From an uncultured virus (IMG/VR IMGVR_UViG_3300021400_000153) (taxonomy: Duplodnaviria; Heunggongvirae; Uroviricota; Caudoviricetes), in IMG/VR virus record IMGVR_UViG_3300021400_000153: DNA of 20,000 nt, one strand, 5' to 3'. The notes beneath the pieces are model-generated. The model was given only the letters and a program-made list of their open reading frames with translations. It had not been told where the DNA came from and did no database searches. Both the position numbers and the translations under genes were made by a program. How positions within the stretch are numbered: the first letter of the stretch is position 1; each line of letters begins with the position of its first letter. Positions 5,878 to 10,559 of the stretch are shown one piece after another.

Positions 5878-6093
5878 ATGACAAGCCAGGTTCAGATATT
5901 TCTTAACAACATGCTCGATTCCGGGGAAAAGAAGAAGTCCGTGTCAGGGCTGAACTACATCGACTATTTCGGAGAGCAGTTCGTTCATATTGAGAGAAAG
6001 ATGGGGTTCGCTGATGTAAGTATTCCAGTTTTCGACACGGACACATATGACGATATCCGCAAACGGATTGAGTCTCACCCGGCATATTACTGA
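5878..6093 (+). CDS. Hypothetical phage protein
   Basis: 71 aa, perfect SD AAGGAGG, fills the operon gap. Confidence 0.7.
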   Translation: MTSQVQIFLNNMLDSGEKKKSVSGLNYIDYFGEQFVHIERKMGFADVSIPVFDTDTYDDIRKRIESHPAYY

Positions 6094-6101
6094 GGTGAAA
6101 T

Positions 6102-6380
6102 ATGCCGAAAGTAACTGATAAGTATTCTCGCTACAAGGCGAGGACAAGAGAAATTGAAGATGTATTAAAAATTGCTCTTAAGGCAGAGCATCTGACACAG
6201 GCGGCGGCGGCAAAGAAGATCCGTATGGATCAGAGTACGCTGTCGAGAAAACTGAGGAACATTGACAAGTTCACACTAGGGGAGCTGCGAACATTCGCAG
6301 AAGTGGCAGGACTTGAAATCATCATAAGGGGGAAAAGAAGTTATGAAGGGGAACAATTGGAAGGAAAAAAGAAAACTTGA
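6102..6380 (+). CDS. XRE-type HTH DNA-binding protein
   Basis: LTQAAAAKKIRMDQSTLSRKL...FTLGEL; SD GAGGTG. Confidence 0.8.
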   Translation: MPKVTDKYSRYKARTREIEDVLKIALKAEHLTQAAAAKKIRMDQSTLSRKLRNIDKFTLGELRTFAEVAGLEIIIRGKRSYEGEQLEGKKKT

Positions 6381-6561
6381 GTTAATCCGGCACATCAATT
6401 CATTCATGGTTGGCATCGTGCTGATACTCATTATCGGCATGGTCGGCTCATGGGACATCAGGGAAGTAAGACCTGGAGAGATGGAGATTTTCATCGCATC
6501 CACGACTTACATCGTCTTGTACGGAGTGATTGTGCTGAGACGGAGATTTGAAGGAGAGTGA
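6343..6561 (+). CDS. Small membrane protein, two predicted TM helices
   Basis: Hydrophobic stretches FMVGIVLILIIGMVGSW and IFIASTTYIVLYGVIVL; purine-rich SD. Confidence 0.65.
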   Translation: MKGNNWKEKRKLELIRHINSFMVGIVLILIIGMVGSWDIREVRPGEMEIFIASTTYIVLYGVIVLRRRFEGE

Positions 6562-6562
6562 A

Positions 6563-6805
6563 ATGGCGATTTACAAGGGAGAAGACACACCATATGCGAA
6601 GACACAGAAGACGGCAGATACTACGGAACGGATCACAACGCCGGAGTTGACCGTCAACAGATCTCTGGAGGAGATCATCACGCTTTACGCAAAGGCAATT
6701 GACCTGATGGAAAGAATTAGCCAGACGGCAAGAGCGTATTACATGGATGACAAGACGAAAGTCCTTTGGATTAAGGACGCGACTAAGGAATATACGGAGC
6801 AGTAA
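6563..6805 (+). CDS. Hypothetical phage protein
   Basis: Probable ATG at 6563 after AAGGAGAG; 80 aa. Confidence 0.65.
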   Translation: MAIYKGEDTPYAKTQKTADTTERITTPELTVNRSLEEIITLYAKAIDLMERISQTARAYYMDDKTKVLWIKDATKEYTEQ

Positions 6806-6815
6806 TGGTCAACGC

Positions 6816-6909
6816 CATCCGCATAGTTGGTGGCGAGAACAGCTACAAACATTACTAAGCACGAATGCGCTATGCAGATAAGAACATAACAATACAACTT
6901 ATGCGGATG
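6816..6909 (+). ncRNA. Intergenic long-stem/large-loop structured element
   Basis: CATCCGCATAGTTG (6816-6829) pairs with CAACTTATGCGGATG (6895-6909), 14 bp with one bulge, closing an A-rich 65-nt loop with inner hairpin GTGGC/GCTAC. Confidence 0.5.
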
Positions 6910-6928
6910 AGATTAATTAGGAGGTTTC

Positions 6929-8875
6929 ATGTCAACATTATCGTTCAACCATGTTTCCATATCCCAGTTCAAGGGATTTCACGACAGAGAATTTAATCTG
7001 TATCCGCGAACGGATGTCATCGGTGCGAATGGTCGCGGGAAAACCACATTGGGAATGACTCTGGCGTTGCCTTTTACAGGCAAGGATCTTGCCGGACACA
7101 GCAATCCCGAAATCCATCCTGATGATATGCCGGAATCGGAGCCGCACATCACCATCAGCGGAGATATTGACGGCAAGCCCATCGAAATCGAGATGCTTCA
7201 GCGGGATCTTCGGACTAAGAAAGACCGGGCAGAAGATAAGCCGCCAAGGATCGCAAATAAATACAAGATCAATGCGGTCGATAAGTCCGCAAAGGCATTC
7301 GGCGCGGATCTTCTTGAGCGCGGCATCGACATCAGCAAATACGAACAGCTTACGAACCCGAACTGGTTCAATGGGCTGAAAGAAGCTGACAAGCGCAAGG
7401 CCGTATTTGAGATGGTTGGCAACATCACAGACAAGGATGTCGCTGAATCCATCAAGGATGATGTTCCTGATGTTTTAGAGAAACTTGAAAACTACAGGCT
7501 CGATGAAATTGAGTCAATGGCAAAAGCCCAGAAGAAAACGTCCTCTGAAAGACGGGATGCCATCCCGGAGCAGATTATCGGGATGGAAAAGACGAAGATT
7601 GATCTTTCTGACATCCAAGAGTTGAAAGCCAAAGCGCAGAGGCTTGCGGCTCAGATTCAGATAGGGAAGGAGGAATTTAACAAGGTTCCTTCAGTGACTA
7701 AGGAATCAATCCATCCGCAGATCGTGTCTCTGCGGCAGAAACAGAGAAATCTCGTGGCTGATGCCAATTCCGCGATTCATGACGAACTGCGGAAAGCGCA
7801 GAGAACCCTTGACGAGAAGAACCGCCAGTACGAAAGTATAGGCTTTGAGATCGAGACGATTACTTCACGGATTAAGCGGAAAGAGTCGGATATCTCCTAT
7901 CAGAAGGAGCAGCTTCAGAAGAGGCTTGCCGAGTACGAGGAGAAGAAAAACTCCACGTTTCCGGCTGATGAAGAGATTTGTCCGAGATGCGGTCAGAGAC
8001 TTCCGAAGAAGGACATCGCAAAAAAAGCTGAAGATTGGGAGAAGAAAAACGAGTTGGATCTCAAGGCTATGCGCGATGAAGGAAACAAACTTCACTTGAA
8101 GATCAAGTCTCTGGAGTCAGAGGTCGAATCTCTGAAGAAGGAACACGCAGATAAAACTGCGGAACGCGAGTCTCTGGAAAAGGCCGTATCAAAATCGAAG
8201 AAAGCGGTCGATGCGGCTGAGAAAAAGCCATTGGAAGACGGCAACGGCATTCCTGAGTATGTCGAGTGCGACAAGCAGATTGCCGAACTGGAACGGCAGA
8301 TGGAAGACATCGACAGAATTGAAGCGGAAAGAGCCGTGAAGCTGAAGAACCTGGATTCGCTCACTTCAGAACTCGATGATGTCCGCAGAGAACTGACCAA
8401 AGAAGGTTTCAATGCTCATGTGGATGAGCAGATCGCAGAACTGAAGAAGGAACTGCGTGAAGTATCACAGAGTTACTCATCGGCTGAATCAATCCTGTAT
8501 CAGGTTTCTTTGCTGAATAAGCGGAAGAACGAAATGCTGACGGATGCCGTCAATGCGAATTTCCCGGAGTACATTCGTTTCAAGCTGTTCGACACATTAA
8601 AGAACGGTGAACTGAAGGATTGTTGCATCCCGCTCATCAGGAATGAATTTGGAGAGTGGAAGGAACTTGGAAAATCGGCAAATACCGCTCTGGAAATGAG
8701 AGCGAAGATCGCCATTCTCGATGCGTTTCAGCGTTATAACGACATGTATTTGCCGATCGTCATTGACGGCGGTGAATGCCTTGATACTGAGAACAAGATG
8801 AGAATTGATGTGACGGGGCAGCTTATATTCCTGTCGGTTAAGGATAACGCCAATTTGACGGTAACTGAAATTTAA
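6929..8875 (+). CDS. Rad50/SbcC-like SMC-family ATPase (phage recombination module)
   Basis: 648 aa. Walker A GANGRGKTT, long coiled coils with central zinc hook CPRCGQ, Walker B IVIDGGE. SD AGGAGG. Confidence 0.88.
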   Translation: MSTLSFNHVSISQFKGFHDREFNLYPRTDVIGANGRGKTTLGMTLALPFTGKDLAGHSNPEIHPDDMPESEPHITISGDIDGKPIEIEMLQRDLRTKKDRAEDKPPRIANKYKINAVDKSAKAFGADLLERGIDISKYEQLTNPNWFNGLKEADKRKAVFEMVGNITDKDVAESIKDDVPDVLEKLENYRLDEIESMAKAQKKTSSERRDAIPEQIIGMEKTKIDLSDIQELKAKAQRLAAQIQIGKEEFNKVPSVTKESIHPQIVSLRQKQRNLVADANSAIHDELRKAQRTLDEKNRQYESIGFEIETITSRIKRKESDISYQKEQLQKRLAEYEEKKNSTFPADEEICPRCGQRLPKKDIAKKAEDWEKKNELDLKAMRDEGNKLHLKIKSLESEVESLKKEHADKTAERESLEKAVSKSKKAVDAAEKKPLEDGNGIPEYVECDKQIAELERQMEDIDRIEAERAVKLKNLDSLTSELDDVRRELTKEGFNAHVDEQIAELKKELREVSQSYSSAESILYQVSLLNKRKNEMLTDAVNANFPEYIRFKLFDTLKNGELKDCCIPLIRNEFGEWKELGKSANTALEMRAKIAILDAFQRYNDMYLPIVIDGGECLDTENKMRIDVTGQLIFLSVKDNANLTVTEI

Positions 8876-8882
8876 GATTCGT

Positions 8883-9164
8883 AAGTCATCAATCCGAATC
8901 CTCCTCACAGTGCTGATTGTGATTCGACCCCTTACGATAATCCATATGCCATGTGTATCTCACTCATACGGATTGGTGACTTGACATACAAATTGGTCTG
9001 CGGGAACGGCGATCCTCTGAATTTATACCGCGTCAACCTAGGGGATGATTTTAAGTCGGGGCTGACTCCTTTCTTTGTAAGACAGACGGTGGGAAAGACC
9101 ACACAGACTGGTTTGTTAATGAGCATTAAAGTGCGGTCGAAGGCCAAGATCGCCGCCAGTCATT
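8883..9164 (+). ncRNA. Structured non-coding region (multi-domain candidate ncRNA) upstream of the tRNA-like element
   Basis: Stems 8883-8896/8969-8982 (14 bp), 8988-9000/9104-9116 (13 bp) and 9106-9112/9155-9161, plus inner hairpins. G-U pairs only work on the + strand. No credible ORF. Confidence 0.55.
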
Positions 9165-9165
9165 T

Positions 9166-9256
9166 CGGAACGTAGCACAATGGCTAGTGCTTTTGGTGGT
9201 AGAAATGCCGCTTCACCATAACGGCGTTGATGTAGGTTCGAGTCCTACCGTTCCGA
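9166..9256 (+). tRNA. Atypical tRNA / tRNA-like RNA with aberrant anticodon domain (isotype undetermined)
   Basis: Acceptor CGGAACG/CGTTCCG plus A; TA linker; D-arm GCAC-AATGGCTA-GTGC; T-arm GTAGG-TTCGAGT-CCTAC. 41 nt between D and T arms with no canonical 7-nt anticodon loop. CCA not encoded. Confidence 0.8.
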
Positions 9257-9305
9257 TTCGTGTTTTTACATAAACAACACACACCACATGAGAGGAGTAC
9301 ATCGC

Positions 9306-9494
9306 ATGAACAAGATCTCAATTTATTACTGCCGGGAACGCGAGAATTCAAAGGGAAAGAAGGTGCGTTCTGACAGACACAGAGCCACTTACAGGACAGC
9401 AAGTATCAGTGCTGCTTGCAAACGTTTCTACGCATCGCGCCCTGATAACGATTGGTCGATCTATCGGATCGAGGAAGTAAAGGAGCGCGGATGA
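9306..9494 (+). CDS. Hypothetical phage protein
   Basis: Probable ATG at 9306 after GAGGAG; 62 aa; ATGA overlap with the next gene. Confidence 0.65.
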   Translation: MNKISIYYCRERENSKGKKVRSDRHRATYRTASISAACKRFYASRPDNDWSIYRIEEVKERG

Positions 9495-9817
9495 GTGTGA
9501 CTAGGAATCCTTGCAGATACTGTGTGGCGGCGTTTCGCGATAAACGGACTGGACACCATAGACCGAATTTCACGGTGGAATGTCAGTTGTGCGGAAATCG
9601 CAAGGAATATAATCGCCATCTGGAATCCAAACGGATGTTTGAGCCGGGTGATCCAATCACCGAACTGAGCGAATTGCTGAAGCAAGAGTGGGTGATCTGG
9701 CACGGACGGACAAGACACATTGAGATGTTTCGTAGCATGTCCGTGCGGACGGTAGAAGAATTCTTGAAGCATGGAACATTCCGAAAAGCGATAAGGAAGG
9801 AGAATAACGATGGCTGA
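9491..9817 (+). CDS. Hypothetical zinc-binding phage protein
   Basis: ATG at 9491 after AAGGAG; CRYC...CQLC motif; 108 aa. Confidence 0.7.
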   Translation: MSVTRNPCRYCVAAFRDKRTGHHRPNFTVECQLCGNRKEYNRHLESKRMFEPGDPITELSELLKQEWVIWHGRTRHIEMFRSMSVRTVEEFLKHGTFRKAIRKENNDG

Positions 9818-10559
9818 GAACAGCTTCAGCTTGGCACTGACAACAGAATTGGAAAATCAAAGGTCTGCACTTCCGGCAGACTTTAACATCAACAGATTCG
9901 TGCAGAATTCTGTCGCATTGCTTAATGGCAATGACACGCTGATGAAGTTCGCCAGAGAGCATGGCACTTCCCAGATCAAGGCCGGACTTATGCGCGGTGC
10001 ATATCAGGGACTCGATGCCTTAAACGGCGAAATGTATCTCGTTCCATACGGCAGTACACTCAACTTCATGCAGTCCTACAAGGGCGATGTGAAGATGGTG
10101 AAGAAGTACAGTCAGCGCCCCATCAAAGATGTTTACGCAAAACTCGTCAGGGAAGGTGATGAATTTGAAGAGGGTGTGATAAACGGAGAACCTACGATCA
10201 ACTTTAAACCCTTGCCGTTCAATGACGGAAAAATCATTGGGGCATTTGCCGTTTGCCTGTATGTGGACGGCGGCATGGTATACGACACGATGAGCCTTAA
10301 AGATCTTGAAAATACAAGGTCTTCGAGCAAGGCGAAGAATTCCCCCGCCTGGTCAAAATTTACAGGACAAATGTATCTTAAGACGGTTCTTCATCGCCTC
10401 TGCAAGCATCTATCAATCGATATGGACGCAAACGCCAGAGAAGCGTTTGATGCAGGAACGGAAATCGAAACAGATCCGTCTGAGATCGCAAAGTCAGAGA
10501 TCGCCGAGAATGCCAATTCTGAAGAACTTGTAGTGGATGCCGAGGAAGTCATCGAATGA
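9810..10559 (+). CDS. recT: RecT/Redbeta-family single-strand annealing recombinase
   Basis: GLDALNGEMYLVPYG, MQSYKG, VREGDEF, IIGAFAV and PAWSKFTGQMYLKTVLHRLCK match RecT motifs. Confidence 0.92.
   Translation: MAENSFSLALTTELENQRSALPADFNINRFVQNSVALLNGNDTLMKFAREHGTSQIKAGLMRGAYQGLDALNGEMYLVPYGSTLNFMQSYKGDVKMVKKYSQRPIKDVYAKLVREGDEFEEGVINGEPTINFKPLPFNDGKIIGAFAVCLYVDGGMVYDTMSLKDLENTRSSSKAKNSPAWSKFTGQMYLKTVLHRLCKHLSIDMDANAREAFDAGTEIETDPSEIAKSEIAENANSEELVVDAEEVIE

Follow-up and report, generated by a model that had tools for sequence, protein, structure and literature searches.

A putative cassette of small structured RNA modules upstream of a tRNA-like element in the early operon of a gut prophage

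Phages T4 and T5 encode small, stable, structured RNAs of unknown function (RNAC and RNAD in T4, RNA1 in T5), which are co-transcribed and processed together with the phage tRNAs. The C4 RNA of phages P1 and P7, of about 77 nt, blocks a ribosome-binding site (RBS) by pairing and has specific targets in its own operon, and in C-rich small RNAs of Bacillota, such as RsaE/RoxS and the loops of S. aureus RNAIII, several unpaired C-rich words pair with G-rich Shine-Dalgarno (SD) regions. Here we compare these systems with a stretch (8883-9163) found in 20,000 nucleotides of an uncultured virus of the Caudoviricetes (IMG/VR record IMGVR_UViG_3300021400_000153), a sequence referred to below as the window. 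The stretch follows the gene of an SbcC-like ATPase and lies in the gap 8876-9305, the largest of a prophage early operon, at the end of which a tRNA-like element (9165-9257) is found. With roughly even confidence, we propose that this gap is occupied by a cassette of small structured RNAs independent of one another, transcribed in the early operon, cut into pieces and binding SD regions in general; an earlier analysis made from the letters alone, hereafter the sequence-only reading, had instead taken 8883-9164 as a single multi-domain RNA of roughly 280 nt.

Processing of the C4 antisense RNA of P1/P7 by RNase P is given in the title of Hartmann et al. (1995), cited in PMC4919922. The present locus would resemble C4 and the CI RNA of phage P4 as a phage regulatory RNA cut from a longer operon transcript, with RNase P making one end, and it shares unpaired C-rich words with RsaE/RoxS and RNAIII, C4 and these RNAs being the nearest in proposed mechanism. 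Unlike C4, to which there is no Rfam match, the candidate RNase P site would here belong to the neighboring tRNA-like element, and whereas RNAs of the RsaE/RoxS kind are expressed from separate genes that have a promoter and terminator of their own, the motifs described below are part of an operon cassette and have no sequence or Rfam similarity to those RNAs. To the T4 and T5 RNAs there is no sequence relation, and blastn of 8876-9290 returned no match in 50,697 GenBank phage records. In setting, the nearest known RNAs are ROOL and GOLLD, described in PMC12286853 as highly structured non-coding RNAs of unknown function that phages or prophages encode "often near tRNA islands". ROOL and GOLLD are single ornate folds of 500-800+ nt which assemble into cages, and ROOL first came to light in rumen data. 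The RNAs of the present locus are also folded, phage-encoded and located beside tRNAs or tRNA-like genes, but their units have 57-100 nt and shuffle independently, and neither family was matched by cmscan at E up to 10. In fact, no module matches any Rfam family: at the gathering threshold of Rfam 15 the window, L001 and 11 related loci matched tRNA only, and in 8700-9400 the relaxed search (E up to 10) added only the chance-level matches ToxI (18.6 bits, threshold 50) and SNORD110 (14.7 bits, threshold 64), both on the - strand. A 2023 survey reports 10,006 candidate phage RNAs (PMC10690425); six of our contig identifiers do not occur in the six of its nine supplement files that the search covered.

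Separate modules in the gap

Every helix listed by the sequence-only reading was found in the sequence at its place, and most of them exceed chance, the longest pairing run that each 5' strand finds in the downstream sequence having been compared with 1000 dinucleotide shuffles. The claim that these helices account for almost the entire gap as one fold was not confirmed, as RNAfold gave -76.3 kcal/mol for the + strand of 8876-9164 against a shuffle mean of -78.4 kcal/mol (z-score, or z, of +0.41; 121 of 200 shuffles fold as well), and a z of -0.32 for the - strand. As a whole the stretch does not fold better than shuffles, and the evidence is more in line with a chain of separate modules than with one RNA of 280 nt. 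The proposed orientation stands, since the G-U pairs favor the + strand: on the - strand they become A-C mismatches, and in duplex DNA they would be meaningless.

G001, an IMG/VR contig of 63.8 kb, is the nearest record; its ATPase is 98% identical in protein sequence and its RNA stretch 97% identical in nucleotides. Counting substitutions only, this pair differs at 1 of 201 nt in 8876-9076, against 44/975 in the 3' half of the ATPase gene and 14/189 in the next gene, and at 17/93 in the tRNA-like element; these counts, together with the covarying helices described below, support the view that the stretch is structured and conserved more tightly than the flanking genes. G001 carries in addition a 104-nt insert (after 9102) and a 69-nt insert, both placed where modules meet, and shows 3-nt and 1-nt indels. 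The stretch was also correctly taken as non-coding: the ATG-initiated frame of 74 codons at 8951-9175, which has no Pfam or PHROGs match, is broken in G001 by the 1-nt and 104-nt insertions, diverging after about 34 codons and ending inside the inserted module, and it is missing from L066, a metagenome contig whose ATPase is 51% identical to that of the window and which displays a 386-nt gap at the same place, without a tRNA. The window and L066 have in common TGACTCCTTTC and likewise AACACACAC and the RBS region ahead of the next gene.

The P1 domain (8883-8982, + strand) is closed by a helix of 14 base pairs (bp), one of them G-U, between 8883-8896 and 8969-8982, and contains an inner hairpin (8905-8911/8916-8922) and two unpaired C-rich words, CCTCCT (8900-8905) and ACCCCTT (8927-8933). 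The longest pairing run, 15, was reached by 0/1000 shuffles, and the domain folds with a z of -4.22 (0/200 shuffles as good). In G001 an A8979G substitution changes a U-A pair of this helix to U-G, and in L066 an 11-bp P1 helix is found in other letters (AGTTACCGGAT/ATCCGGTGACT, 4946-4956/5001-5011), its counterpart domain having a fold z of -2.89 and a pairing run reached by 23/1000 shuffles. L066 also retains the motifs CCGRATYCYCCTCAC, CCCCTT and GGTGACTTRACATA of the P1 region, and compensatory changes preserve the helix itself there.

The K module (9000-9076, + strand) is formed by two hairpins, a pairing between their loops, and a free tail. The helix ATCCTCT/AGGGGAT of the sequence-only reading is real and covaries, but it represents a loop-loop contact, Ha (9012-9018/9040-9046), joining the loops of two hairpins that had not been listed, Hc (9000-9003/9028-9031, GCGG/CCGC) and Hb (9032-9038/9060-9066, GTCAACC/GGCTGAC). 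Two tandem repeats of about 113 nt in L066 each align with 9000-9076 of the window, and all three pairings are found in both: Hc, GCGG/CCGC in the window, reads GCUG/CAGC in copy 1 and GCAG/CUGC in copy 2, the third pair being G-C, U-A or A-U in the pair table of the window, G001 and the two L066 copies; Hb, GUCAACC/GGCUGAC with one A-C in the window, reads GUCAUCU/AGAUGAC and GGUCACU/AGUGACC; and Ha, CCUCU/AGGGG in the window, reads CUCCU/AGGAG and CUUCU/AGAAG. A covariance model of Hc plus Hb (R1) detected a fifth copy on the - strand of L097, a 129-kb contig (599-679; 51.1 bits, E 1.5e-11), with a weaker Hb that contains two A-C oppositions. Across the five copies Hc, Ha and Hb all covary. 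Nested folding of the K copies gave z values of +1.05 (9001-9076; 172/200 shuffles as good), +0.07, -0.21 and +1.37, and the lack of a nested-fold signal is expected if the loop-loop contact matters. The free tail (9065-9074, ACTCCTTTCT) follows Hb, the single-stranded sequence reading GACUCCUUUCU in the window, GACUCCUUUCA and GACCCUCCUAU in L066, and ...GCCCUCCUUUCU(U) in L097, where it runs directly into a tRNA-Gln gene.

Downstream of the tail, the segment 9077-9104 (+ strand), with the conserved GGAAAGACCAC, is the remnant 5' flank of another module, module B. This unit of 104 nt is present in G001 and L097 and exactly absent from the window; in G001 it reads TTATGCGG...CCGCATAA (L001 1732-1835), is placed right after GACCAC, and folds into a closing stem with three arms, cloverleaf-like, although neither ARAGORN nor Rfam calls a tRNA. 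Module B also precedes the junction module described below in L097 (about 340-480, - strand), L078 and L079, the order in L097 being the same (...GGAAAGACCAC followed by GTTATGCGG...) without the GTGG strand. Its last arm covaries, with GUGAGG/CCUCAC in G001 and L097, GUAAGG/CCUUAC in L078 and GUGAAG/CUUCAC in a DNA contig of run X5. The hairpin GTGG-GAAAGA-CCAC (9089-9102) of the sequence-only reading is present in this flank in the window, but was not kept in L097, which has ATAG in place of GTGG.

The next unit is a 57-nt three-way junction (9105-9163, + strand), with an outer stem (9106-9111/9156-9161) and two hairpins, 9113-9117/9122-9125 and 9133-9138/9148-9153, the second of which presents an invariant loop, GAAGGCCAA (9139-9147). 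It corresponds to the alternative junction GACTGG/CCAGTC enclosing two small hairpins that had been pointed out before, and it proved to be conserved: two word scans of IMG/VR, which returned 8 stretches and 27 stretches (16 of the latter unrelated coding-like matches), led to 11 other contigs of 5.7 to 205 kb in which the module occurs in otherwise unrelated surroundings. An alignment of these 12 rows has a mean column identity of 90%, with a standard pair in 99.0% of 194 cells; 4 of the 17 pairs change on both sides, the covariation score is reached by 0/500 shuffles, and slid controls are 14-63% paired. The fold of 9105-9163 has a z of -2.16 (6/200 shuffles as good). Apart from G001, all 10 of the 10 junction loci have at least one Rfam tRNA match within 600 nt; in 4 of the 12 copies an element scoring as tRNA starts within 6 nt of the 3' end of the module, and in several others the next sequence is tRNA-shaped and below threshold.

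In the window the element that follows (9165-9257, + strand) begins 3-4 nt past the junction module, as expected from the earlier claim that the stretch stands directly 5' of a tRNA-like element. It has acceptor, D and T arms, scores 45.4 bits with the Rfam tRNA model and is called by ARAGORN as Thr-GGT with a 19-nt anticodon region; G001 shows compensatory changes in its D and T arms, and in L087 a homologue 79% identical stands directly after the junction module (75-166, - strand). The element is presumably non-decoding and is probably a processing signal. As a separate observation, it has in place of a normal anticodon arm a helix of 6-7 bp, AATGCCG/CGGCGTT, which in G001 (L001 1967-2057) reads AACAGCG/CGTTGTT through compensatory changes, and the linker TGGTG before this helix can pair with its loop CACCA in a pseudoknot-like arrangement; the L087 homologue has different letters at the helix and linker places.

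The three C-rich words noticed previously are all present and all have counterparts in the distant homologue L066, CCUCC(UCAC), CCCCUU and CUCCUUUC; of the unpaired parts they are the most conserved. In the K tail CUCCU is found in 5 of 5 copies, even where Ha drifted to CUUCU/AGAAG, and the fixity of this word while Ha drifts points to an outside partner of fixed sequence. Against 26 phage RBS regions, 8897-8910 pairs at -8 kcal/mol or lower with 16 and 9064-9077 with 17, shuffled motifs doing as well on average in 1/200 and 9/200 cases, respectively. Accordingly, the caution of the sequence-only reading that its match to the immA RBS may be generic was justified, since the motifs pair in silico with most of the RBS regions.

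Contigs of two RNA libraries from different studies (X17 and X19) and of two DNA runs (X5 and X9), mapped on 7800-10400, contain parts of the stretch. Each RNA library contains one whole contig without loose ends, 8893-9060 (168 nt) and 8894-9060 (170 nt, with the TGA insert of G001), respectively, while DNA contigs cross both end sites (8702-9087 and 8559-9074); the coincidence gives a weak hint that the contig ends are RNA ends. In both kinds of evidence from these RNA libraries the flanks matter, as the junction module is present there too, on contigs whose flanking sequence is foreign (9106-9170, 9107-9142 and 9110-9147). The missing RNA cover on 7800-8892, 9061-9105 and 9171-10400 in X17 and X19 was not counted as evidence.

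These data show modules that are conserved, that covary and occur in RNA libraries, and that are exchanged as units and associated with tRNA or tRNA-like genes. The previous view of a single RNA of about 280 nt is at odds with the gain and loss of whole modules between near-identical phages, with the recurrence of the last 57 nt alone in 11 other contigs, and with the separate pieces found as RNA-library contigs.

We hypothesize that the cassette comprises, in this order, the P1 domain, the K module, the remnant of a lost cloverleaf-like module, the 57-nt three-way junction and the non-decoding tRNA-like element, and that it is transcribed within the early recombination/replication operon of the prophage and cut into stable pieces. 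A scan of 6000-10500 found no sigma-70-like promoter site on either strand (5.0 expected from shuffles) and no terminator-like site on the + strand, and a promoter for an RNA starting at 8893 was found neither by scan nor by eye; consequently the gap is most simply transcribed with the operon, and the release of 8883-9163 from its transcript through processing is plausible. Cutting would be carried out by host tRNA-processing enzymes at the tRNA-like element and presumably by other nucleases elsewhere. Modules of these kinds would reside in tRNA islands of large ruminant-gut phages and be gained or lost as whole units. P1 and the K module would keep unpaired the words CCUCC, CCCCUU and CUCCUUUC, similar to the 16S rRNA tail, and the likeliest activity, exerted in trans, would be pairing with SD regions of mRNAs in general, thereby damping translation initiation. 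The RNase P processing and the silencing at RBSs put forward by the sequence-only reading are still inferences, as are the processing route as a whole, the action in trans and the targets. The locus shows that folded RNAs far below the size of ROOL and GOLLD also travel with phage tRNA islands as interchangeable units, and that a temperate phage has taken such modules into its early operon, in which their conservation exceeds that of the neighboring genes. Should the words bind RBSs or factors of the 16S 3' end, they would provide phages with a general, sequence-simple means of adjusting translation, their own and that of the host. Three new candidate families for RNA catalogues come from the locus, namely the P1 domain, the K module and the junction module.

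Possible alternatives: cis elements, a single RNA, or decoys

Several observations weigh against an independent cassette that acts on SD regions. The whole stretch, the K module alone and 8893-9060 (z +1.26) fold no better than shuffles; P1 is carried by two independent lineages and K by three, so the covariation counts are small, and the support for K is comparative. The RNA-library contigs, which give neither strand, level nor true ends, start at 8893/4 inside P1 and stop at 9060, before the 3' strand of Hb and the tail: if these ends are true, the stable species would be without the tail and most of P1, and it may be a core left by processing, or assembly may have produced the ends. Moreover, the middle C-rich word (8922-8935) pairs with the RBS regions no better than shuffles (129/200), and SD complementarity is generic and proves no regulation. 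Nevertheless, we favor general SD binding in trans, a role in cis and a role as decoy being the main rivals.

The rival that survives best, which we consider possible but clearly less probable, is that the structures act in cis only, in processing, stability or translation control of the operon mRNA and without targets in trans, for instance by guiding maturation of the tRNA-like element, protecting the ATPase message or masking the RBS of the next gene. In fact, both ACTCCTTTC (9065-9073) and CTCCTCACA (8901-8909) can pair with this RBS (GAGAGGAGT, 9290-9298), the junction module usually stands directly 5' of a tRNA-like element, and the scans described above detected neither a promoter-like site nor a + strand terminator-like site. 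However, in L097 a tRNA gene and not an RBS follows the K module, and in L066 the complementarity to the RBS is down to 4-5 nt of generic SD/anti-SD pairing; furthermore, the RNA is far more conserved than its flanks and is found on short contigs of its own in RNA libraries.

Somewhat more doubtful is a single multi-domain RNA of about 280 nt, in which P1 and a second long-range helix, P2, close two domains and the junction sequence serves as the 3' strand of P2. The candidate P2 helix (5' strand 8988-9000, partner 9104-9116, + strand) has 13 bp, three of them G-U, a run which only 2/1000 shuffles reach, and it is present in the minimum free energy and centroid folds of the whole stretch; G001 keeps it, with a G-C to G-U change at one end. 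P2 thus beats chance in the window and, by tying the K module and the junction together, would speak against strict independence of the modules. The fold of 8988-9116 has a z of -0.69 (47/200 shuffles as good). P2 and the junction fold are mutually exclusive, because P2 uses as its 3' strand the conserved 5' half of the junction module; this strand is invariant in 11 contigs that do not have the P2 5' strand; in L066 the P2 equivalent is at chance level (247/1000), and run X9 is without one G of the 5' strand. The insertion or deletion of modules inside the supposed domain, namely the 104 nt in G001 and the other sequence that in X9 replaces 9075-9104 and the tRNA-like element, is also difficult to reconcile with a single RNA, as are the whole-stretch z and the separate RNA-library contigs. 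P2 is either a competitor of the junction fold or an adaptation of this locus.

We observed that UUGGUC (8993-8998), immediately 5' of the K module, complements the invariant junction loop at GGCCAA (9142-9147; 6 pairs, one of them G-U). UUGGUC also stands ahead of the K module in L097, a contig with the junction module, and is missing from L066, a contig without it; in run X9 one of its two G's is missing. The two words could form a long-range contact that competes with P2.

A more specific idea about the K module, to which we give similarly little credence, is that this compact RNA of roughly 80 nt is a portable mimic of the mRNA-docking tail of the ribosome, with a kissing-hairpin body presenting ...CCUCCUUUCU. 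In tRNA-island phages RNase P would free its 3' end, and it would then compete with 16S rRNA for SD sequences, leading to shut-off or re-programming of SD-led translation, or act as a decoy for factors or toxins of the 16S 3' end; P1 and the junction would belong to the same shared RNA toolkit, which would pass, along with tRNA mimics, among jumbo and temperate gut phages. At the L097 locus (602-681, - strand; L115) the K tail ...CCCUCCUUUCU touches the first base of the tRNA-Gln gene, and an RNase P cut would there leave a 16S-like free 3' end.

The same arrangement, with the tail ...CCCUCCUUUCU(U) ending where tRNA-Gln begins, is what a role purely as decoy would draw on, the K hairpin and the CCUCCUUUCU tail imitating the 16S rRNA 3' end and the tRNA-like parts imitating tRNAs in order to divert host nucleases or toxins. 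PMC12274833 describes a MazF toxin by which the 16S anti-SD is removed, and the modules travel with phage tRNA islands. We regard the decoy role as improbable: the tail is internal and not terminal in both the window and L066, outside the tail nothing similar to the 16S 3' domain was found, and no defence gene is linked to the modules here. Very improbable, finally, is a spacer with chance pairing, a site acting at the DNA level (origin or recombination) or a gene for a small protein, for although the global fold is no better than shuffles on both strands and 8951-9175 is an ATG frame of 74 codons, the sub-domain z values are significant, compensatory changes occur, G-U pairs have no meaning in duplex DNA, G001 has lost the frame, which is also missing in L066 and without Pfam or PHROGs match, and RNA-library contigs exist.

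Operon setting and further observations

Pfam and PHROGs scans of its genes identify the window as a prophage, and its early operon is that of a gut phage. An integrase is encoded on the - strand (1279-2295), and a metalloprotease of the ImmA kind and an endolysin with CHAP and SH3 domains are also present. The long + strand operon contains HNH, ParB-like and HTH genes and the SbcC-like ATPase (6929-8875), and after the gap two open reading frames (ORFs; 9288-9494 and 9452-9817) without Pfam or PHROGs family, RecT (9810-10559) and genes for an MBL-fold protein, SSB, a DnaB-like helicase, a dUTPase and a C5 methylase. Fifteen terminator-like sites were found in 6000-10500, all on the - strand (4.4 expected).

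Two candidates were rejected. A type III toxin-antitoxin RNA (ToxI-like), expected as tandem short pseudoknot repeats ahead of an endoribonuclease toxin gene, was discarded for the window, as it has one K copy (against the two repeats of L066), the ToxI model match lies on the other strand and below threshold, and the two ORFs after the gap, without Pfam or PHROGs family, are followed by RecT, MBL and SSB. An ORF for the K module (SD-like AGGAG plus AUG) was set aside, as the AUG is not kept in L097.

Searches for further copies gave few relatives. A K-module pattern matched twice in the genome collection, in a Chlorobiaceae metagenome-assembled genome and in Streptacidiphilus (R1 16.7 and 15.4 bits), taken as chance, and pattern scans of IMG/VR for P1 and K returned just G001 or L097, plus chance matches in L068 and L069 (divergent promoter region). 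On five other junction-module records the sole R1 match was L097's own record, and unit A is missing from five records with the junction module. A tblastn search of GenBank phages with the ATPase gave 110 records, none of which reached 60% identity, the best having about 25%; the protein scan of the genome collection found no relative, and a metagenome scan with the ATPase subfamily gave 2 loci only, of which L065 is without the downstream part. In 59 IMG/VR ATPase loci of 29-34% amino acid identity neither nhmmer nor blastn matched the RNA, and no tRNA was found.

Two further inserts were observed close to the junction module. The 69-nt insert of G001 (L001 1897-1965), not found in the window, lies between CCAGTCAT and the tRNA-like element and has hairpins of its own, such as AGGCCTTTA...TAAAGGCTT. 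A block of about 60 nt, GGGAGTGTAAGTGTAGRCAAAGGGT...GATGTGCTTGTTAGAGTATG, recurs downstream of junction modules in L072, L076 and L077 and may be a further module of the tRNA-island toolkit.

In phages with an ATPase about 32% identical, 16 of 55 loci carry a hairpin-rich non-coding insert of about 324 nt between the ATPase stop codon and the next RBS (L027 5029-5352, L015, L023, L026, L029, L032, L034, L035, L038, L040, L042, L053-L056 and L058). This insert is unrelated in sequence to the window RNA, R1 finding nothing in six such loci, and other loci of this group, such as L007, have only a 25-nt gap. The site downstream of the ATPase gene is apparently a hot spot of non-coding insertion.

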